Of a stretch of DNA of 42,935 nt, positions 31,377 through 42,935 are shown one piece after another. The stretch is taken from assembly GCA_050287085.1 (NCBI GenBank), contig JBNKBE010000034.1:1-42935 (forward strand). Reading direction: 5' to 3'. How positions within the stretch are numbered: the stretch's first letter is position 1; each line of letters opens with the position of its first letter. The position numbers and the translations under genes were made by a program. Source of the stretch: Polyangiaceae bacterium. Lineage in GTDB: Bacteria > Myxococcota_A > Polyangia > Polyangiales > Polyangiaceae. The notes below the pieces were generated by a model that worked only from the letters and a program-made list of their open reading frames with translations, did not search any database and had not been told where the DNA came from.

Positions 31377-32390
31377 TCACTTCGCGGAGTCGTGCTCTGA
31401 AGCGTGCAATGGGCTCGACACGCGCGCCGAAAGCCGAGCCCCCAGCTCGGCCCCCGATAGGGCAAAATGCCAGCCCAACGAGCGACTGAGGTGGCGCAGT
31501 AGAACATGGCCGCGCACGCTCCCCCCCTTGCTGTTGATACGCGGACTGCACACGGCAACGCCTGCGACCCCCGGCACAATAGCCACAATGAGGCCGCTTA
31601 CTCCGCTTTTGGCGGGCATGCCTGTGGCCGCAAGATAGTTCCCGCTCTCGTTGTACATCCCGCATGTCGCCATCAACGACACAACCACGGCCACGGTAGA
31701 CGGCCCAAGCACCCTCCGGCCCGTCTTGGTATCGACTCCGCCGTTGGCAAGTAGCCCCACGAAACGGGCTGCGTCCACGACATCGCCGCGAAGGGAGCAC
31801 AAAGCGAAATAGGCTTCGAGTGCGTCGTCGACGTCCCCTGCCAGCACCCCCGTGTGTTTGAGCAGATAAGCAATGGATCGGTTTCGATAGGCCGTTGCCC
31901 GCTCCGAAGCCCTAACCGCCTCGTCGATTGACAGGGACGTTCCGTAGAGGCTCCGTGCCCACCGCAATATCCACTCGATGCGCTCAGCGGCAGCCCCGGA
32001 GAGCAGCCCCGCGAGCGCAATAGCCCCTGCGTTGACCAAGGGATTGGAGGGCAAAGGACCGTCCGTTTCCAACCGCGCGACAGAGGCAAAGTCACGCCCA
32101 GACGGCTCAGAACCCACGGTCTTGAAGACTTCTACGGCCCCCAGTTCCTCCAGCAGACCCGCCAAAAGCAACAGCTTGGCCGTACTCTGAAAGGTAAAAG
32201 TGTGCTGCCCAGCATCACCGCCCGTGACGACTTCACCCGTGACACACGTGATCGCCACCGACAGCAACTCTGCGTCCACGCGCGCCAATTCAGGGATGTA
32301 GTCCGCCGGCGCACCCTCTCGGTTGCGCCGCGCCCTTTCCAAGCCCACGCGCAGTGCCGCGTTGATCGCCTCGTGGTCGTTGGCCAGCAT
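31377..32390 (-). CDS. glsA: Glutaminase A
   Basis: ADYIPELA, QSTAK (SxxK), GSEPSG, NPLVNAGAI, CGMY, PAKSGVSG; start inferred at MLANDH. Confidence 0.92.
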   Translation of the reverse strand: MLANDHEAINAALRVGLERARRNREGAPADYIPELARVDAELLSVAITCVTGEVVTGGDAGQHTFTFQSTAKLLLLAGLLEELGAVEVFKTVGSEPSGRDFASVARLETDGPLPSNPLVNAGAIALAGLLSGAAAERIEWILRWARSLYGTSLSIDEAVRASERATAYRNRSIAYLLKHTGVLAGDVDDALEAYFALCSLRGDVVDAARFVGLLANGGVDTKTGRRVLGPSTVAVVVSLMATCGMYNESGNYLAATGMPAKSGVSGLIVAIVPGVAGVAVCSPRINSKGGSVRGHVLLRHLSRSLGWHFALSGAELGARLSARVSSPLHASEHDSAK

Positions 32391-32514
32391 GCTCTCTGTT
32401 CTAGCGCGTTTCCCTGCCAAGTGCCCAAACCGTAGCAAGGGTCAAAACGACGTCGCGGGCAAAGCCGCTTCCCCCCCGGGCGCGCGAACGCGCGCGCCGC
32501 GTTCTGCCCGCCCG

Positions 32515-33141
32515 CTACTGCGGCAGCGGCGGGTGAATCAGACCGCGCTGCTGCAACGCGGACACAACGTGCTGAGCCAGGGCGCCGTCCAGTCCCGCGA
32601 AGACTTCCAAGACCTCGAGCTTTGGACTGAGCAAATAAGCAGATGACACACCCGGATGAACACCAAATGACGACCGCACGCGTCCCTTAGCGTCTGCTAT
32701 GAGCACATGTGAAAGCTTGTGTTTGGTCGCATATTGGCGCAGCACCAACGTCGGCGCTGGAACGACCCCCAAAGCCATACCAATCTGCCCCTGGAGAGCC
32801 AACCAACTATCGCGCAAGGAATCCGTCGCGGCCGTGCACTCCGGATGTGAAATGTCGGGACAGAAGTAGACAACAAGCGGTAGCTGCGAGAATTCCGACA
32901 GCCGGAAGCGCCGTCCAAAGTGGGCCAGCGCCTCCACGTCGAACGCAACTTCACCCACCGCTAGCGGCGTCGCGCGCACCGGTGCGTCCGTCTTGGGAGC
33001 CCGCGGTGCCGGCGCCGTGGAGACTTGCTTTGCATCGACGTGCGCCCGTTCGCACCCGGCGCTCACCCAAAGCGCCCCGATACAACCCAGAGCGCCCATA
33101 CCCAGTCGAAGTGTACGTCTCACAAGCCTTGCCATCGCCAC
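32515..33141 (-). CDS. Peroxiredoxin/BCP-like thioredoxin-fold lipoprotein (degenerate active site)
   Basis: Lipobox-like SAG-C; VVYFCPDISHPECT...LRD, YATKHKL..LIAD..G..FGV; start overlaps stop of upstream gene. Confidence 0.65.
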   Translation of the reverse strand: MAMARLVRRTLRLGMGALGCIGALWVSAGCERAHVDAKQVSTAPAPRAPKTDAPVRATPLAVGEVAFDVEALAHFGRRFRLSEFSQLPLVVYFCPDISHPECTAATDSLRDSWLALQGQIGMALGVVPAPTLVLRQYATKHKLSHVLIADAKGRVRSSFGVHPGVSSAYLLSPKLEVLEVFAGLDGALAQHVVSALQQRGLIHPPLPQ

Positions 33142-36100
33142 TACTGAATCTTGTACTCACGCAAACGGCGGTAGAACGTGCGGCGCGGGATACCCGCAAG
33201 CTCGGCAGCCCTTACCCGGTTCCAATTCGAGCGCTCCAATGCTTCTATGATGCGTTCTCTTTCGCCCCGACGATGAGCGGAAAGCGTTTCTTCTTTGGGG
33301 CCCAAAGACTTCGTATCTCGTATCGCAGGTGGCGGGCCTGAAGGCGGCCGACTCAGCGGTCGCTGCGGAAACTCGAGGTCGGCTGCCACGATTTCGTCAT
33401 CATCACTCATGACCCACGCACTGAGCAAGACATGCTCGAGCTGCCGCACGTTGCCCGGCCAGGAGTACGTTGCCAACAGCCGTAGGGCATCCTTGCTCAG
33501 ACTGCGCTTGGGCCGCTGGTAGCGAGCCGCAAAGATGCCGAGGAAGTGGTCTACCAGTAACGGCAGGTCATCGAGTCTGTCGCGAAGGGTCGGAAGCTGT
33601 ACCTCTACGACCACGATGCGGTAGTAGAGATCTTCACGGAATGTCCCCGCATCGACCATCTCGCGGAGATTGCGATGGGTGGCGAAGACGAATCGACACG
33701 CGATCGGCTCCTCCTCCGTCCCCCCAACAGGTCTGACCTTGCGCTCTTGAAGCACTCGCAACAGCCCGGCCTGCATCTTATGCGGCATCTCGCCGATTTC
33801 GTCGAGCAACACTGTGCCGGCACCCGCGTCCCGCAACAGCCCTCGCCTCGCCCTATCGGCGCCCGTAAATGCCCCGCGCACGTGTCCAAACAGCTCGCTC
33901 TCGAGCAAGTGCTCCGGAATAGCGCCGCAGTTGACGCCCAGAAAGGGCAGCTTGCCGCGCTCGGAGCCACGGTGCAAAGCGCGGGCTACAAGCTCCTTGC
34001 CCGTGCCGCTCTCTCCCGTGATGAGCACCGGGACCTGGGTGTCTTTGACCCGGTCAATCAGAGCATAACAACGCCGCATGGGATCACTCGTTCCCACGAT
34101 GCCTTGGTAGCCAAAATGACTCAGAATGACATCCCGCACTGCGCGCAACTCACGACGCGTTGCTTTGAGGGACTCGGTGCGCTGCCCCAGCAACTCCTTG
34201 AGCCGAACCTGCGCAGCCTGGAGCTGCTCATTGGCCGTTGCCAACGCCTCCGCGCGTTGCTTGTTCTCGTTGACCAATTGCTGCGTTTCAATTGCCAGCG
34301 CAACCTGGTCGGCAAAAGCGCGTAACGTGGGCAGTTCCCGTTCGAAGCGCTCCCCAGATCGCTGACGGCTCTCCACATAAAGCGCCCCGATCGGGGCACG
34401 CAAGCGCGCCACGATCGGCACGCAGGCGACCGATTCAAGCATCAATTGGTGGACGCTGCGGAAACCCTGAAGACGTGCATCGTCCCGCGCGCGAGCGCTG
34501 ACCACGGGCTCTCGTGAACTGATAACGGACTCCGCGATGGAGCGGGAGAAGTCGAGATGTTCGGCGTCCCCCGCGCGATGGCTCGACGAGTACACTCGAA
34601 GGCCACATTGCTCGTCCTCCAGGATCACGAAACCGCGTTCAGCGTGAACCAACTCCACCGCGTATTCGATCGCTTTTGCCGCCAGCTTTTCGAGATCCAT
34701 CTCACCCAGGAGCTCTTGATTGATATCCAAGAGCCTCGCGAGACGCTGCTCCAACGGCGTTCGCGTATAAGCTGAGATGGGGGAGCTCAAGCTGGTCGAA
34801 TCACCCAATGCCAACTGGGTCGGTGCATGCACCAGCGCGCCTTCCACCGCGCAACGCAAGCGTCGCCGGCGCGGGTCATTCCAAAACACTTCGCGCAGGT
34901 CCCGCGAGAGTCCGGCACCGATCTCCTCGAGAATCGTCACGGCCTCCAGTCGATCGCGACGAGCCGTAACGTGTTGACCGGCTCCCTCCTCCAACTCCGC
35001 TCGGGTTTCCAAGACACGCCAAATCCAGTCGCGCTGATCGGCACCGCGAGCCGCGGCCAGCGCCGTCGCAAGTAGCCCCCGAGCGTGTTCTTCATCCCCA
35101 CCGACCATGGCGACGCGAGCCGCAGCCAACGAGACAAGGGCCCCGTGGGCCTCCGAATCGCCCAAACTAGCGCGCGCGCGATTGACCCGGGATGTCAGTT
35201 CAAGAACGTTGACGCCCTCGACGTGGACCGCGGCTAAGACGCCCTCGAGCTCTGCCTCAGCCGCGCTACTCGCCATGCCCAGATCGACATACGCCTCCGC
35301 GCAGCGGGCAAAGAGCGCCACCGCCTCGGAATAGTGCTCCTGCTTGAGCTCGAGCTCTGCCTGAGAACCGAGTAGCTGCGCCCGGGAAAAACGACTCAGA
35401 GCCTCTTGCTGTCGCAGCAGCGACTCGATCCCGGCCTGTGCGCGCGCCAGGCGCCCCAGGTAGAGGTCAGCGTTGGCGAGCCCAAGCAAAACGAAACGCA
35501 CCGTATTCTTGCGCCCCGAGCGCCGGCCCATATCGAGCGCCGCTTCGAAACACTCCAGGGCTCGCGCCACATCACCCCGAACGCGATGCAGCACACCCAG
35601 GTTCAGCTGCGCCGTACCAAGGGCTCCCGCATCCCCGACGCGCTGAGCACAGGCGACTGCAGCACGATAGGCCGCTTCCGCTTCGTCCAACGCGTCGGCG
35701 CGCTGTTGGATGAGGCCAAGCCCGATATGGGCCAAAGCTTCAACTCGGCCGTCACCGAGAGTACGCGCCCATTCGCTAGCGCGCGTGAGACTGTCGAGCG
35801 CTCCCGCCTGATCCCCAAGATAGTGGAGCGCCAATCCCTCGAACGCCAATGCTTCTGCGCCGATAGCTCCCTTGTCGGTGACCTCGCGTAGAAGCGGCAA
35901 CGCCTCTTCCGAACGGGATAACGCGACCTCGCTGCGGCCAAGCCACACCTTCCAATACTGTGCTTCTGGACTCTCCGCACGCGCTCTGGCCTCTCCCTCG
36001 ACAGCCATCAATTCGTCATAGGCACGGCGACCATCACCCAAGCCGACAAAGAGGCGGGCGCGACTGACCGCAAGCGTTAAGGGATCGCCCGACTCCGCGA

Positions 36101-37541
36101 GCGCCAACGCCTGCTCCGCCTCGTTGTAGCGTCCGCGGTTGAGGTAGGCTACCGCGCGCTCGAGAGCGTTTTCCGGCGTGATGCTCTCGAGCGGAGCTCG
36201 TCGTGCGCCGAGCAATACGTCGTCGATGTCTTCTTCTGACACCACCGGACTGAGAGCCAACAACCCCACTACCCGCCGCAACTCACCAGGTAAGCTGCAC
36301 GCGGCCAACAACACCCTTCGCGCGGTCTTCTCCGTAAGAGACGGAACCGCTCGCTTCAGCAGCTCCAGCGCGGCCGATTCTGTGAGCCGAGGCACCTCAA
36401 AACGATGCAACGGAGCCGCGACCACGTCTTCCGACGGCTCTTCCGCGGACGCCACGACAAGACAAGCTCCCTCAGCGCGGGCCGCTCGCAGCTGCTGCAT
36501 CGCGCGCTCCGATACGCAGGCGACGTCGTCGACGATGATGACCAGGTCCTGCATCGAGGGAAATGCCGACAACTCGCTGGCAAGAGCCTCGGGCGATGCA
36601 GCAAGAAACTCATCCACCCAAACGAGCGGTGTACCCTCCACTCCCAGCGACCAAGCGAGCCTGCGCAGCAACACGGATCGCCCAGAGCCATCTCGTCCGA
36701 CAACCAGTAGTGCTTCGCCCGCGCTAAGCTGATTGGCCGCGCCCACAAGACGCCCGGCAGTTGAATCTATACCCACGATCGGCCAACTGCTGCCAACACG
36801 GTACAAGACGTCACGCGGAGGCAGTCCTGCCGCTCGGCGCAAGGCCGCGGCGAACTCGTCCGCGGATGGGAAGCGGTGCGAGGGCTCGTCATGCGTCGCA
36901 CGACGCACTACCGGCTCTAGCTCGGAGAGCTCCCCGTCGCACTCCCCAGCGATATCGCGCAGCGCAACGCCCAGCGCGTAGACCTCGGCGCGCACCGTCA
37001 GCGGTCCTCCCGCGAGTAACTCAGGAGCGGCGTACTTCGGCGTCAAACCGCTCGCTCGCGACCCAGCTTCCAGAAAATGAGCGGACAGTCCAAGATCAAC
37101 CAGAGTCGCGCCAGCGGCGGTGGCGATGATATTCGCGGGCTTGACATCACCATGCAAGAATCCAGCGCGATGCACTTCGGTGAGCTGTTCAGCCGCCGCA
37201 CACAATACGCCAACGGTTTGGTGCCAGGACGCGCCCTCGCCTATCAGCGTTTCCAAGCTTTGGCCCGGGACCAGATCCCGAATCATGTAGGGCCGCGCGC
37301 TGCGAGCCAGTCGACCGAAACGCAGGACTTCCGGCAATCCAAGACCCTCGAGCCCAGACAGCGCAACAGCCTCTCGAACCAAGGCTGCCCGCTCGTGCTC
37401 CGTGGCCCCTTCGGCGAGAACCTTGAGCGCGTAGGACCGCCCAGTGTGGCGGTCGCGCACGGACCAAACCTCTCCCCCTCCGCCCGAGCCTAGCTGCTCT
37501 ATGGGCTCATAGCGCTGGGGGAAATCCAGCGAGATGCTCAC
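33141..37541 (-). CDS. Ser/Thr kinase – degenerate NTPase – TPR – GAF – sigma54-dependent AAA+ activator – Fis HTH fusion
   Basis: GSGGGG, ALK, HGDVKPAN, DLG, YAAPE; GRDGSGRS/IIVDD; TPR helices; GAF (ACVPI..GALYV); GESGTGKE, GAFTGA, LLDEIG, WPGNVRQL; HTH RAAELAGIPRRTFYRRL. Confidence 0.92.
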   Translation of the reverse strand: MSISLDFPQRYEPIEQLGSGGGGEVWSVRDRHTGRSYALKVLAEGATEHERAALVREAVALSGLEGLGLPEVLRFGRLARSARPYMIRDLVPGQSLETLIGEGASWHQTVGVLCAAAEQLTEVHRAGFLHGDVKPANIIATAAGATLVDLGLSAHFLEAGSRASGLTPKYAAPELLAGGPLTVRAEVYALGVALRDIAGECDGELSELEPVVRRATHDEPSHRFPSADEFAAALRRAAGLPPRDVLYRVGSSWPIVGIDSTAGRLVGAANQLSAGEALLVVGRDGSGRSVLLRRLAWSLGVEGTPLVWVDEFLAASPEALASELSAFPSMQDLVIIVDDVACVSERAMQQLRAARAEGACLVVASAEEPSEDVVAAPLHRFEVPRLTESAALELLKRAVPSLTEKTARRVLLAACSLPGELRRVVGLLALSPVVSEEDIDDVLLGARRAPLESITPENALERAVAYLNRGRYNEAEQALALAESGDPLTLAVSRARLFVGLGDGRRAYDELMAVEGEARARAESPEAQYWKVWLGRSEVALSRSEEALPLLREVTDKGAIGAEALAFEGLALHYLGDQAGALDSLTRASEWARTLGDGRVEALAHIGLGLIQQRADALDEAEAAYRAAVACAQRVGDAGALGTAQLNLGVLHRVRGDVARALECFEAALDMGRRSGRKNTVRFVLLGLANADLYLGRLARAQAGIESLLRQQEALSRFSRAQLLGSQAELELKQEHYSEAVALFARCAEAYVDLGMASSAAEAELEGVLAAVHVEGVNVLELTSRVNRARASLGDSEAHGALVSLAAARVAMVGGDEEHARGLLATALAAARGADQRDWIWRVLETRAELEEGAGQHVTARRDRLEAVTILEEIGAGLSRDLREVFWNDPRRRRLRCAVEGALVHAPTQLALGDSTSLSSPISAYTRTPLEQRLARLLDINQELLGEMDLEKLAAKAIEYAVELVHAERGFVILEDEQCGLRVYSSSHRAGDAEHLDFSRSIAESVISSREPVVSARARDDARLQGFRSVHQLMLESVACVPIVARLRAPIGALYVESRQRSGERFERELPTLRAFADQVALAIETQQLVNENKQRAEALATANEQLQAAQVRLKELLGQRTESLKATRRELRAVRDVILSHFGYQGIVGTSDPMRRCYALIDRVKDTQVPVLITGESGTGKELVARALHRGSERGKLPFLGVNCGAIPEHLLESELFGHVRGAFTGADRARRGLLRDAGAGTVLLDEIGEMPHKMQAGLLRVLQERKVRPVGGTEEEPIACRFVFATHRNLREMVDAGTFREDLYYRIVVVEVQLPTLRDRLDDLPLLVDHFLGIFAARYQRPKRSLSKDALRLLATYSWPGNVRQLEHVLLSAWVMSDDDEIVAADLEFPQRPLSRPPSGPPPAIRDTKSLGPKEETLSAHRRGERERIIEALERSNWNRVRAAELAGIPRRTFYRRLREYKIQ

Positions 37542-38643: not shown

Positions 38644-40266
38644 CTAGGCCAGCGGACTGCGCGGATCGACCACCACGCGATTGCGACCCATTTCCTTGGC
38701 TCGATACAGGGCGGCATCCGCGCGGCCAAAAAGCTCCGCCGGATCCCCATCGAACTCGCCGAGCAAGAGGCTAGCTACGCCAACGCTCACCGAAACACGG
38801 ATCAAGCCAGAGGCGGTCGGAACCGTATTGCGTGCGATCGATTCACGGATCCGGTCGGCGACGCCACGCGCCAACAGGGCATCAGCCCCAGGGAAAACCA
38901 GCGCAAATTCCTCCCCGCCAGCGCGTGCCACGAAATCTTGCTCCCGCGCCTTTCTCCGGAGCTGGTCCGCGACCGCACAGAGCACATCGTCGCCAGCGGC
39001 ATGCCCCATGGTGTCGTTGACGCGCTTGAAGTGGTCAATGTCCACCATGGCGACGCTCAGTGGCTCGCGTCGTGCCGCCGCCCGCAGCAGGTATTCCGCA
39101 AGTTGCGCGCGCAACTCTCGTCGGTTGGGCAACCCCGTCAAGGCATCCGTGCTCGCCAGCCGTTTCAGTTGCTCGTTAGCCTCCTGCAGTTCGAGCGCCA
39201 TCACGTCCTTCTCTTCGAGCACGCGCTCCAGCGTCTGCACGACCTCTACGTAGTGGCGCGTCATATCCACGAGCTGATAACGCGCGTCGTTGACGAGACT
39301 GGCGATATTGGGTTGCACTGGAAGATCGCGGATGAAGGTAGACGCCGCCTCTTCGACCTGCGCAGGAAGCGCCTCCAGCACCTGATTGATGTCGTGATCG
39401 TCCAACCCGAGTCGCGAGCCCGCATCATAGGCTCGCTCTCGGTTCAGGGCGATCTCTCCCCCTTCGAAGACCCCCGCGACCCGCTCAGCAGTCCAGGCCA
39501 CCGCCGCCAGAGGCTCGTCCGGCATCTCCCGCGAGTGATGCAGCGCCACAGCTCGCGTGACGCGTGCCGGCAAGCGGTGCTGCTTGGAAAGCTCGGCCCC
39601 CAGCTCTGCATGCGGGGCGCGCCCCAGCGCCCGTTCACGGAGAGCGCGGTCCGCGGCGGGCGTTCCTGCGAGTTCCAGCGCATGACCGATATCGCTGCTA
39701 CCGCCGCACAAAAAGCCCGCATCGAGCAGAAGCCCGATGGTGAAATAGTCGTCCGGAGCATCATCACCCAGGGCCTCCCCGAGCAGGCGGGCAGCCGTCG
39801 CGCGCCGAATGCACTGCGCGACCAATAGATTCCCGTCCGCGCCAGGCGGTGCCAACTCCGAGATCACCATCCCAAGCGCGACGGTGCGGGTTCCCCGAAC
39901 TCCAAGCAAGTTGATCGCCTGCGAGAGCTCGGTAACCTTGCAGGCTCCCGCATAAGCCGCGCTGTTGACCATGCTGAGCAGGCGCATCGCGAAAACGGGG
40001 TCGCTCTTGGCCAGCTTTGATAGCTCCGCCAGCGTAACGCTCTCCTGCACAGCCGCCTGGAGGATCCGGGTAGCCGTAAACGACGTCACCTCGTGCCCCG
40101 AAGGAACTGCAAGCGCTGGCTTGGCGCTCCCCTCTCCTCCTTGACGCCGAGACGACTTAGGAGCGGTTCGCGGCCCTGAGCCCGTCTCATTGGAGCGTGG
40201 CTCCTCGGCAGATGGCTTTGCGGTCCCGGCCAGCTCAGTTTTTGTCAGTCGTGTGGCCGCAGGCAT
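38644..40266 (-). CDS. HDOD-domain diguanylate cyclase (GGEEF)
   Basis: SDPVFAMRLLSMVNS..AINLLG (HDOD), coiled coil, TDALTGLPNRR, DIDHFKRVND, RxxD (REQD) and GGEEF; start inferred at MPAATR. Confidence 0.9.
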   Translation of the reverse strand: MPAATRLTKTELAGTAKPSAEEPRSNETGSGPRTAPKSSRRQGGEGSAKPALAVPSGHEVTSFTATRILQAAVQESVTLAELSKLAKSDPVFAMRLLSMVNSAAYAGACKVTELSQAINLLGVRGTRTVALGMVISELAPPGADGNLLVAQCIRRATAARLLGEALGDDAPDDYFTIGLLLDAGFLCGGSSDIGHALELAGTPAADRALRERALGRAPHAELGAELSKQHRLPARVTRAVALHHSREMPDEPLAAVAWTAERVAGVFEGGEIALNRERAYDAGSRLGLDDHDINQVLEALPAQVEEAASTFIRDLPVQPNIASLVNDARYQLVDMTRHYVEVVQTLERVLEEKDVMALELQEANEQLKRLASTDALTGLPNRRELRAQLAEYLLRAAARREPLSVAMVDIDHFKRVNDTMGHAAGDDVLCAVADQLRRKAREQDFVARAGGEEFALVFPGADALLARGVADRIRESIARNTVPTASGLIRVSVSVGVASLLLGEFDGDPAELFGRADAALYRAKEMGRNRVVVDPRSPLA

Positions 40267-40372
40267 TCCGGTTCTTTGAGAACGGCATCCTGGGCCCAAG
40301 CTTGAATCGACCCAAACACACAGCGGCGTTGCGAGCTCCAAACCACGCCATCCGAGGAGCGGACTGGATCGC

Positions 40373-41155
40373 TCAGTCGCGCAGTCCGAACCCCCGGAGG
40401 CCATCGGTGGCGGCAAAGCCATTGTGACAGTCAGCACAAAAGTCCAAAGTGGGAGCGCCCTCATCCTGCAGCTTCCCAGACGGGCTTCGCCGCTGATAGA
40501 CCCAATCGCGCGTATCCTCATCTGAGCCCGGCGCCCCCTTGATCATCACCATGACGACGTCGACCGTTCCGTCGTTGTCCACGTCCTGATCTTTGATGGC
40601 AACGCTACCCACCGGCGCCGAGAACTCTTCTTCATCCGCCACCAAGCGCAGATTGCTAGAATAATAGATGCGCACGTGGCCGTGGGGGCTTCCGGGCAGT
40701 GCCGGCTTCAAGTCGTCTGCGAGGGTGAAGAACGCATCCGAAGTGCGGAAGTCAGGATCGAATCTGCCCGGTCCCTGCGAATTCGCATCGGACTGAGCGC
40801 CGCCGGCGTCTGCGTCAGGGCTCCCGTCGTCGCTCTGGGTCGCGCCGTCTTGCTCCTGGTATGTGTCGGGCTTGGGCGCATCGACCATGGCTTCATCACC
40901 TGCCACGGACGCATCGGCATCGTTCGCGGGGCGCCCAGGGCGCATGTCTCCAGCATCCAGCGCCCCTTGGGTAGAGCTTGCCCCGCTGTCCATGCCGCCC
41001 TCGTCTGAGTTGGTGCTACAGCCGATGGCGGCGAGTGCGAACAATACCGGTACCCCCCCAAGAACACGGCCGAGAGTCCCGACCCACGTCTGACGCACGG
41101 GGTTGTGGTCTCCAGAGTAACGTGATCGTGGGGTGAAAGGAGGGAGCGGGGTCAT
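40373..41155 (-). CDS. Cytochrome P460-family lipoprotein
   Basis: Lipobox-like AIG-C, acidic DAG-rich linker, PVGSVAIKD, VMVMIK, DWVY, C-terminal CADCH. Confidence 0.75.
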   Translation of the reverse strand: MTPLPPFTPRSRYSGDHNPVRQTWVGTLGRVLGGVPVLFALAAIGCSTNSDEGGMDSGASSTQGALDAGDMRPGRPANDADASVAGDEAMVDAPKPDTYQEQDGATQSDDGSPDADAGGAQSDANSQGPGRFDPDFRTSDAFFTLADDLKPALPGSPHGHVRIYYSSNLRLVADEEEFSAPVGSVAIKDQDVDNDGTVDVVMVMIKGAPGSDEDTRDWVYQRRSPSGKLQDEGAPTLDFCADCHNGFAATDGLRGFGLRD

Positions 41156-41296: not shown

Positions 41297-42379
41297 ATGC
41301 TCACACGGACCATCCCAGCCGTTGGCGGCCCCCTCCGCCAGGCCACCCTTGCACTCGCGTTTGGGATGGCCGTGACCGGTTTGCGATGTGAAAACCCAAA
41401 GGGCACAACAATCGAGTCGACCGAGCTGGGCCAAGCGCAAGACACCGAAGCGCTGCGCGCGGCGCGGCTCCCTCGCCCGGGCGAGGCCACGCCGCGCCGC
41501 ATTGCTCAGCCCCAAGGCCATTTCGCCCGGGAAGGATTCGTGCGCATGGCGCCACCGCTTCAGCTCCCGGGACGCGCATCGCGGCGGGACTGGACCGACG
41601 TTTGGCTGCGACTGCCGGAGCATGGGCAACTGGACGTACTCCCAGACGCCAGGGGGCGGCTGCGGCTCACCTACCCAAACGGAACCATCGCCGACCGCGT
41701 AGAATTCGTCTCCTTCGGCGAGCCTCCCAACCCCACGTGGAGCATCGCCGACGTGCGCGGAACCGAGCTCGTCCAGGGTCGCGAACTATTCCACGCCCTG
41801 CGGCCCACCGCCAACACGGCTCACGCCCCCTTGGAAGGCTTCGCCTGGTTCCGCGACGACGCCACCGCCAGCTCCGCCGCTACGGAACAGCTAGCGACAC
41901 GGGTGGCGAAACTTGCGCAAGTCGCGCCCCAGACTGAAGTCGTGCGGCGCGCTCGAGCCAACAATCAGTGTGCAAGCTGTCACCTTCACGACCGCGACGA
42001 CAACGCGAGTTGGCGTCAGTTCGGACTCGTCAACCGCGGTACGGATCACGCCGGCTTCTTTGTCGTTCGGACGGTGTTGGCAGGACAGGCGCCACTGGAA
42101 ACGTATCTGCCCCATGAGCGCAACCTCAACGACCCGCTGATTCGCTTCGTCTGTCCCAACGACGGCGAAACGTCACTTGCCAGCCGCGGCGACGACGGTC
42201 TCCCTCATTGCGCGAGCGGCAGGATTCCGGTCGGGGTTCTTGACGTTGCCAAAGGACTCGCCCTGCACGATCGCAGAACGCGAGACCTCTGTGCCGCCCG
42301 CCGATACCTTGGCAGACACATGACCACTCGGGCTCGCGAGCATTACGCAAGGGCCTTGGCCGAGTGTGGTCCCCAATAG
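41297..42379 (+). CDS. Exported hypothetical protein with one CxxCH heme-binding motif
   Basis: Hydrophobic N-terminal signal (LALAFGMAVTGLRC), CASCH, four further Cys in the C-terminal part; no family recognised. Confidence 0.65.
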   Translation: MLTRTIPAVGGPLRQATLALAFGMAVTGLRCENPKGTTIESTELGQAQDTEALRAARLPRPGEATPRRIAQPQGHFAREGFVRMAPPLQLPGRASRRDWTDVWLRLPEHGQLDVLPDARGRLRLTYPNGTIADRVEFVSFGEPPNPTWSIADVRGTELVQGRELFHALRPTANTAHAPLEGFAWFRDDATASSAATEQLATRVAKLAQVAPQTEVVRRARANNQCASCHLHDRDDNASWRQFGLVNRGTDHAGFFVVRTVLAGQAPLETYLPHERNLNDPLIRFVCPNDGETSLASRGDDGLPHCASGRIPVGVLDVAKGLALHDRRTRDLCAARRYLGRHMTTRAREHYARALAECGPQ

Positions 42380-42577: not shown

Positions 42578-42599
42578 CCCGACCAAAGGAATACGAAAA

Positions 42600-42935
42600 A
42601 TGAAAAAAGGCATTGATGCCGTGCTCAAGGCAGCGCTCCTGGGCGTAGGCGTGTCGGGTCTTGTTGCTTGCAATGACAGCGACAACAACTCCAAGACGTC
42701 CGTGGCAATGTCCGACGCAGGCTGTCCTGGACAGGCAGGCTGTCCTGGGGAAGCAGGATGCCCTGGAACCAACACGTCGGACGCCGGCTGTCCAGGCGCC
42801 GCGGGCTGCCCCGGAAAAGGGGGTGACACCGCCACGGACGCGGGCTGTCCCGGTGCCGCGGGCTGTCCCGGTGCCGCGGGCTGTCCCGGCGCCGCGGGCT
42901 GTCCCGGCGCCGCGGGCTGTCCCGGCGCCGCGGGC
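42600..42935 (+). CDS. Cys-rich AGCPG-repeat lipoprotein (3' truncated; not in ORF track)
   Basis: AAAGGA SD; MKKGIDAVLKAALLGVGVSGLVA-C lipoprotein signal; 10 complete AGCPG motifs; frame open to the window end. Confidence 0.85.
   Translation, partial: MKKGIDAVLKAALLGVGVSGLVACNDSDNNSKTSVAMSDAGCPGQAGCPGEAGCPGTNTSDAGCPGAAGCPGKGGDTATDAGCPGAAGCPGAAGCPGAAGCPGAAGCPGAAG
42840..42935 (+). repeat. 18-bp coding tandem repeat (GCGGGCTGTCCCGGYGCC), over 5 copies, running off the window
   Basis: Directly visible; encodes AGCPGA. Confidence 0.95.

Follow-up and report, generated by a model that had tools for sequence, protein, structure and literature searches.

The window, 42,935 nt, is the whole of contig C34 from the genome of a Polyangiaceae bacterium (6.2 Mb, 160 contigs, 62.8% G+C), so the open reading frame that runs off its right end has been cut by the assembly. 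This frame, gene A, encodes a predicted lipoprotein precursor (Table 1) whose translation has ten complete AGCPG motifs, at residues 40, 46, 52 / 62, 68 / 81, 87, 93, 99, 105. A sequence-only reading had described three blocks of 3, 2 and 5 motifs, each led by SD or TD, with Cys 6 residues apart inside blocks, and the translation agrees exactly. Pfam returns only a collagen-type low-complexity match for gene A. Genes P and X lie upstream in the window and were overlooked by that reading; judged by gene linkage, they belong to the precursor system. The window also holds a 1466-aa kinase-NTPase-TPR-GAF-sigma54 activator (33141-37541, minus strand) and genes for HDOD-GGDEF (38644-40521), AhpC/TSA (32515-33141) and glutaminase (31377-32438) proteins, none of which recurs beside the cluster among the scanned flanking genes of relatives.

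Table 1. Features of the locus in the window and on contig C32
Feature	Position	Strand	Remark
Shine-Dalgarno-like AGGA	42587..42590	+	9 nt 5′ of ATG
Precursor gene A, 5′ part, 112 codons	42600..42935	+	open at contig end
Predicted lipoprotein signal peptide, lipobox LVA-C (Cys24), then Asp/Ser/Asn-rich stretch	42600..42671	+	
Repeat block 1	42717..42770	+	three AGCPG motifs, diverged at synonymous sites
Repeat block 2	42783..42818	+	two AGCPG motifs
Repeat block 3	42840..42935	+	five AGCPGA motifs, then AG; almost perfect 18-bp array
Gene P, predicted lipoprotein with cytochrome P460/c'-beta domain	40373..41155	-	PF16694, E 1.7e-4
Gene P, predicted cross-link Lys	40592-40594	-	
Gene P, CxxCH	40424-40438	-	
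Gene P, family-invariant His		-	
Gene X, 360 aa, unnamed family	41297..42379	+	one CxxCH haem motif (41969-41983); further conserved Cys
Gene X, invariant Arg	41696-41698	+	CxxCH and Arg in 37/37
MNIO gene B (DUF692), 334-aa ORF	C32, L001:13896-14900	-	directly after gene A stop; outside window
Partner gene C (DUF2063-like), 244 aa	C32, L001:13175-13909	-	outside window

Gene A almost certainly continues on contig C32. In six-frame translations of the source genome, the tandem pattern GCPG.{1,3}GCP matches four times here, twice at the end of C32, and nowhere else. C32 is the only other contig carrying tandem GCP motifs, which are located at its extreme end and lead into a stop codon and a PF05114 gene. 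Read on the minus strand from 50281, it opens in frame with GCPGDAGCPGTGGASALDAGCPGQAGCPGQGN and then a stop, giving 4 further GCPG motifs before the TAA. Because the contigs end without overlap, we infer the join, and with it a total of at least 14 core Cys, from synteny with relatives, no reads bridging the two. Given the join, gene A would end 33 codons into C32 rather than run on into a large ordinary domain, the outcome that the sequence-only reading had said would tell against a precursor.

In the 13 AGCPG motifs, of which 10 lie here and 3 on C32, all five codons vary at the third position and none at the first or second, which upholds the earlier statement that the early repeats differ synonymously. 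The last block, which had been called an 18-bp expansion, is indeed an 18-bp array of 5.4 copies with 98% matches; its copy number is as assembled, the assembly break falling inside the array. An assembly artefact, with the repeat inflated or C34 not joined to C32 and the frame leading elsewhere, is extremely improbable: the lack of shared overlap and the breaking up of the sequencing run's contigs inside block 3 speak for it, but blocks 1-2 and the C32 motifs differ solely at synonymous sites, the genome offers a single candidate contig end, and the identical gene order is contiguous in six other genomes.

Gene B matches PF05114 at 322.6 bits. Gene C of the source genome matches the HvfC model (E 1.7e-10) and scores 19.7 bits against DUF2063, below the cut-off of 27.2; a convergent PrkA gene comes after it. 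The earlier remark that no maturase is visible is true of the window, and the maturase lies on C32. Of the families suggested for a search downstream, DUF692 and a DUF2063-like gene are present and DoxX is not among 86 flanking genes scanned. The reading of gene A as a RiPP precursor is thereby strengthened, with a DUF692/MNIO gene and its DUF2063-like partner directly after the apparent 3′ end and the A-B-C order contiguous in relatives. The locus has the traits of an MNIO-PME1 RiPP cluster (PF05114 enzyme, DUF2063-type partner and, by pattern test, a Cys-rich precursor with an export signal). Farther along C32, 6.5-10 kb past the MNIO gene, MoeA, MobA, MoaE and MoaC-like genes (molybdenum cofactor) and a DEAD-box helicase were seen by eye.

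MNIO enzymes about 40% identical to that of gene B are encoded at two further loci of the source genome. At the first (contig C5, L002:1468-3747), an MNIO and its partner are accompanied by a convergent precursor of 91 aa and Buf2 type; it contains a lipobox-like Cys and is placed downstream on the opposite strand, unlike in the usual ABC order. At the second (contig C13, L004:1399-3198), MNIO and partner form a fusion of 599 aa, and no Cys-rich precursor was seen beside it.

The search covered Myxococcota genomes, plus a protein database and plasmids. With the MNIO as query against genome contigs, six loci were found. Five have a GCP-repeat precursor and gene X, four of these being labelled Polyangiaceae or Polyangia; the sixth (L010) has an EKSC-type precursor and neither a GCP-repeat precursor nor gene X. 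A gene X profile served as search bait: within the order 28 of 400 genomes matched, within the phylum 11 of 400 (3 common to both), and within the same genus none of seven. After removal of genome G123, one partial match and two duplicates, 37 gene X loci were kept, of which 32 carry a GC-repeat precursor and five have X alone, without MNIO or precursor within about 5 kb (L046, L048, L049, L055, L082). By eye, gene X adjoins a GMC-type oxidoreductase in L046 and sits between an ArsA-like ATPase and a metallo-beta-lactamase-fold gene in L048 and L055.

Among the 32 precursor loci, MNIO plus partner are found in 31 and a P460-type gene in 31, the one gap in each case being a contig end; 29 partner proteins match DUF2063, 18 above cut-off. 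Precursor and P460 domain are fused in nine loci and encoded separately in 23, as they are in the source genome, and further fusions occur among 21 database matches, two of them named Nannocystales and Myxococcaceae. Since the genomes are samples and kin, these counts describe linkage and not independent events. L005, L006, L008, L041, L043 and L045 have P< X> A> B> C> in one contiguous stretch, and L044 shows P< X> A> as far as its contig end. Gene A, or an A-P fusion, is directly 5′ of B in 27 of 31 loci; gene order otherwise takes many forms. Two P460-type genes, one fused or one extra, occur at L047:1988-3327 and L045:439-6611.

In the reverse direction, a precursor profile matched 34 of 401 genomes, 22 of which are the known loci (the source genome, G000, and G123 included). 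The 12 other genomes gave fourteen regions, all of them free of MNIO, X and P, and all 20 leader-covering GC-repeat matches (G000 and G123 excluded) fall in the cluster loci. A second finding that had been named as damaging to the precursor idea, homologs without Cys conservation or modifying enzymes, is not what we see, Gly-Cys and the enzymes being kept.

Beside the clusters, 86 flanking genes (of 112 candidates) were scanned, and none belongs to the copper-transport, multicopper-oxidase, NrsF or DoxX families; only one encodes an ECF sigma factor. A LysR-type regulator adjoins the cluster in 10 of 32 loci (L047, L051, L052, L059, L064, L065, L066, L078, L080, L081). DsbA-like genes adjoin clusters L077 and L079.

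Core counts were made on 241 Cys past the lipid Cys in 32 homologs, one of them probably a miscalled lipid Cys. The preceding residue is Gly in 238 of 241, and Ala stands at -2 in 195. Position +1 is Pro in 194, Ala in 32 and Gly in 12; in all, 47 core Cys have Ala, Gly, Ser or His there. Since these three positions dominate while Gly at +2 occurs in just 93 of 241, the family motif is (A)GC(P) rather than the GCPG core proposed before. The 6-residue period is likewise peculiar to the window copy: homologs have 2-16 core Cys at free spacing, 3-17 residues apart with a mode of 7, and spacings of 3-4 are frequent (45 intervals). The array has almost no His or Met. Three loci (L050, L052, L059) have no GCP and use GCA or GCG, with the same enzyme group. 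The L050 precursor (L050:6225-6557) combines 11 AGC(A/S) motifs with 6 Met, a mixture of ligands of the Cu(I)/Ag(I) type, and that of L052 uses TKGCG, near the Lys-rich EGKCG type.

In the predicted export signal, Cys24 is invariant in all 24 aligned precursors, and by pattern test 33 of 33 carry, within residues 20-28, an [AGS]C that is preceded by 9 uncharged residues. A strict lipobox pattern fits 11 of 33 and a looser form 23; the Cys is invariant, and the window copy reads LVA-C. None of the 24 precursors matched an NCBIfam precursor model, HvfA-type included.

Gene B scores 300.5 bits against the bufferin maturase model (cut-off 310) and 281 against HvfB (cut-off 360), nearest to these two yet below both; the ApyH, ChrH and MbnB models are far (82, 43 and 31 bits). 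Its His/Glu/Asp motifs are intact, kept as in 49 other MNIOs. Mapped by motif, the Asp corresponding to FonB Asp249 is kept, while at the FonB Phe250 site GCP MNIOs have no Phe and mostly Thr, Asn or Gln. They carry the signature ENITYYAxMP, whose Met occurs in 31 of 32 versus 2 of 49 other MNIOs. In a quick tree of 81 MNIOs, labelled by motif and eye and with no Buf1 or HvfB reference among them, the 32 GCP enzymes need 3 changes versus 25.3 for shuffled labels. In this tree they do not form a single clade: 27 of 32 make up one branch (SH-aLRT 88) and five fusion-type ones lie outside it. The branch that holds Buf2, EGKC and related types (45 rows) contains none of the 32.

At other myxobacterial MNIO clades we noticed Ser-Cys lipoprotein-like precursors with EASCSG or EASCG repeats or a terminal SCGxGTC (L133, L136, L137, L139, L143, L144, L146, L150, L156, L162, L163; also L141, L153 and L158-L160). 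Their MNIOs are mostly grouped in the tree, and by sequence these precursors are possible further undescribed types. Another branch (SH-aLRT 100; L138, L145, L147, L148, L149, L155) has no Cys-rich precursor directly upstream.

What such an enzyme could make of a Cys-Pro core can be set against the recent literature. According to PMC13097082, FonBC processed no Pro at any position and requires Gly or Ala after Cys, so the known captophorin enzyme would reject a GCP core. Among the routes to 5-thiooxazole proposed in that paper, its authors prefer one through an azetidinone, which needs an N-H at +1, as does an oxazolone-thioamide route; on chemical reasoning Cys-Pro, which has none, would exclude both. 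A thioaldehyde is the proposed common MNIO intermediate, and it collapses to formylglycine in DybH variants (PMC13733907). The characterised MNIO-PME1 products are all described as carrying 5-thiooxazole and generally binding Cu (PMC13097082; 10.64898/2025.12.15.693703), and lipidated products have been demonstrated for NedA and DybA (PMC13056109).

It is very likely that the MNIO acts on precursor A, and the product is probably a 5-thiooxazole. In the cytoplasm, the MNIO and its partner would oxidise each Cys at C-beta, yielding a thioaldehyde; ring closure by the carbonyl of the Gly before it would follow, for a total of -4 Da per Cys. As Pro offers no N-H, closure would take the direct route, and use of the -1 carbonyl fits the Gly that is nearly always there.

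It is unlikely that the MNIO acts on A but Pro diverts the thioaldehyde, giving formylglycine, an ene-thiol or Cys-Cys cross-links in the CxxC/CxxxC members; such a product would be no captophorin but a chemistry new to MNIOs. The formylglycine of the DybH variants (PMC13733907) and the block of FonBC by Pro (PMC13097082) would fit such an outcome, as would the GCP enzymes' own signature and missing Phe at the motif-mapped Phe250 site, and the many Cys spacings of 3-4. The 47 non-Pro +1 sites and the three GCP-less loci tell against it: as these cores share the GCP enzyme group, a single chemistry indifferent to +1 is simpler, and the MNIO sequence is closest to thiooxazole formers.

Bacterial metallothioneins are unmodified cytoplasmic Cys/His clusters without a maturase. 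The metallothionein branch of the earlier reading, an unmodified peptide, is now unlikely given the export signal, the linked MNIO and the near absence of His. More broadly, repeats that stay unmodified, as a metallothionein-like thiol array or a flexible cytochrome tether with the MNIO serving another substrate, are very unlikely. In nine loci the repeats do sit like a linker, with the lipid anchor on one side and a folded cytochrome domain on the other, but in 23 they are the entire mature protein. Gene A immediately precedes B in 27 of 31 loci, the MNIO of the source genome has no other Cys-rich ORF beside it, and near-invariant Gly-Cys is enzyme-type, not metallothionein-type, selection. 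The rejection of Pro by FonBC (PMC13097082) would also favour an unmodified array.

Gene P, whose true start is probably downstream of 41155, gives a model with pLDDT 92 that Foldseek matches to the P460/c'-beta fold (prob 1.00, E 2e-5; TM 0.61-0.66 to 7s5o, 7ead and 6hiu), and the family profile matches P460 at E 5e-8. The predicted haem cross-link Lys, aligned to McP460 K78 (6hiu) and NsP460 K106 (6amg), is present in 33 of 33 P460-type proteins, and none of the 33 has Asp or Glu in the column of McP460 D102 / NsP460 A131, the distal carboxylate. NsP460, which is inactive, also has no distal carboxylate, and P460 cross-linking is peroxide-dependent (PMC11928373). An invariant His of the gene P family aligns within one residue of the TtCP-beta capping Phe29. 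Five other P460-type genes of the source genome lie outside the cluster, on contigs C18, C8, C5, C13 and C15. Gene X has no Pfam or NCBIfam match; its family comprises proteins of about 340 aa with CxxCH and, on a weak fold lead, is possibly a remote relative of the P460/c'-beta fold.

On balance we lean towards reading A as a peptide that is anchored by lipid, modified by the MNIO and probably able to bind copper, with haem proteins as its partners. After modification, precursor A would be exported by Sec and lipidated at Cys24 to give a membrane-anchored array, which could bind Cu(I) through 14 or more heterocyclic thiols. The P460-type protein and protein X would be redox partners, in the place that DoxX holds in many bufferin clusters; they would supply or remove electrons and likely handle the redox state of the array. 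Copper buffering is somewhat favoured as the main job of the modified array. The lean is a slight one because FonBC rejects Pro, the azetidinone and oxazolone-thioamide routes need an N-H at +1, and the gene context, with no copper families and one ECF sigma among the 86 flanking genes, names no copper role specifically. Further points against this reading are that 5 of 37 gene X loci lack the cluster, that the source genome has five more P460-type genes, that the MNIO and its partner score below their model cut-offs, that the GCP MNIOs are not one clade in the quick tree, that His and Met are nearly absent from the array, and that the strict lipobox pattern fits just 11 of 33 precursors.

The array might instead be the cofactor arm of a periplasmic haem enzyme, combining thiooxazole-bound Cu with the Lys-cross-linked P460 haem and the haem of protein X for chemistry or sensing of NO, hydroxylamine or peroxide, often under LysR control; we consider this unlikely. 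The P460-type gene, present in 31 of 32 loci and fused in nine, across three gene orders and several families, argues for it, and so do the cross-link Lys kept in 33 of 33 with an invariant His near the capping position, the need of P460 cross-linking for peroxide (PMC11928373), the ten adjoining LysR genes and the retention of five parts through many rearrangements. Against it, the distal carboxylate required for hydroxylamine oxidation is missing in 33 of 33, 2-16 Cys at free spacing suit a sponge better than a defined site, and 23 of 32 loci, like the source genome, encode the array apart from the cytochrome. A bolder form is put forward only tentatively, that the five-gene myxobacterial module is a membrane-anchored copper-haem redox device. 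In such a device a Pro-tolerant MNIO would turn up to 16 Gly-Cys-Pro sites into thiooxazoles by the direct route, and the Cu-loaded array would be the cofactor arm of a Lys-cross-linked P460 protein and an Arg-substituted P460-fold cytochrome. If so, it would be the first RiPP modification used within a haem enzyme and the first non-nitrifier job of a P460 cofactor.

Because Cys-Pro has no +1 N-H, its modification would test the ring-forming routes. The family supplies natural Cys-Pro substrates (194 of 241 sites), and the outcome of modifying them would either speak for the direct route or uncover a chemistry new to MNIOs. We know of no job for cytochromes with the cross-link Lys but no catalytic carboxylate, and the cluster ties a group of such P460-type cytochromes to a peptide pathway. 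Bufferin-type clusters often carry DoxX; the two c-type haem proteins here would be soluble, spectroscopically tractable partners. From uncultured myxobacteria, the cluster would contribute a further class of RiPP, with a predicted lipid anchor, and an enzyme that is a candidate for tolerance of Pro; reference-genome surveys seem to have overlooked both.

In a literature search that reached few subscription papers, we found no paper on the GCP precursor family, none linking DUF692 with P460, and none tying P460 to a RiPP in Myxococcota. GCP and Myxo are absent from the text of PMC12452194, and AGCP and GCPG from the scanned rows of two of its tables, which may list accessions in place of sequences; that paper mentions hundreds of unclassified small Cys precursors, which may include the GCP type. 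GCP is also absent from the main text of PMC13056109. In the PMC13097082 dataset, 25 AGCP matches all resemble, on our reading, a formate dehydrogenase iron-sulfur subunit. Five GCPG matches there are one non-precursor protein and two EGCPG/KDGC-type precursors (WP_211631149.1, WP_338289611.1), which are MNIO-linked, have no lipobox seen, and may represent Cys-Pro sites in a second MNIO precursor lineage.

Three precursor classes were tried for membership and set aside. An EGKCG/oxazolin (HvfA) assignment was rejected on the -1 Gly (238/241), the missing NCBIfam precursor match and an MNIO below the NF003818 cut-off; a Buf1/Buf2 assignment on the free spacing, the absence of DUF2282 or a 6/12-Cys core, and a Pfam match of the collagen-type low-complexity kind only; and a chryseobasin (ChrA/DybA) assignment on the absence of CPACGMG and 43 bits to ChrH against a cut-off of 600.

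The EGKCG captophorins (oxazolin HvfA, fontiphorin FonA, gonophorin, and lipidated NedA; PMC13097082, PMC13056109) share with the present family an exported precursor of short Cys repeats, the order precursor-MNIO-DUF2063 partner and an MNIO of the bufferin/HvfB group; NedA is known to have a lipid anchor (PMC13056109), which is predicted here. Their core is Glu-Gly-Lys-Cys-Gly, whereas here it is Ala-Gly-Cys-Pro. The present cluster also includes a pair of c-type haem genes, and DoxX is absent from the scanned flanking genes. The bufferins Buf1 and Buf2 of Caulobacter also have a signal peptide, an MNIO and a DUF2063-RRE partner; about 16% of Buf2 carry lipoprotein signals, and rare Buf1-cytochrome c fusions exist (10.1101/2024.03.18.585515; PMC12452194). 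However, bufferins fold into domains in which 4, 6 or 12 Cys are fixed (Buf1 is DUF2282, Buf2 has 6/12 Cys; same sources), in contrast to the low-complexity array of 2-16 Cys here; their fused cytochrome is PF00034 and not P460-type, and the source genome's Buf2 locus is separate, on C5, with an MNIO 40% identical to gene B. The rejection of Pro by FonBC at every site, as reported in PMC13097082, further sets the cluster apart from captophorins and bufferins. The DAG-RiPPs lipo-DybA and lipo-NedA (PMC13056109) carry an SPII-type signal on an MNIO precursor, the kind of signal that is predicted for gene A. Chryseobasin ChrA also contains a Cys-Pro dyad; in its CPACGMG, PMC13733907 describes oxidation of the second Cys, which Gly follows, the Cys of Cys-Pro being needed solely for final macrocyclisation. 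Gene P resembles the cytochromes P460/c'-beta described in PMC11928373 in fold, CxxCH and cross-link Lys, but it lacks the distal carboxylate and has an invariant His close to the site of the capping residue. It also carries a predicted lipoprotein signal and is linked, or in some relatives fused, to a predicted RiPP precursor, a setting that our searches met in no paper. By analogy, the cluster would seem, by a small preponderance, to work like a captophorin/DAG-RiPP cluster while being a member of neither the EGKCG, Buf1, Buf2 nor ChrA type. Its new features, read from the sequences, are the Gly-Cys-Pro core, the P460-type partner often fused to the precursor, and the unnamed CxxCH protein.
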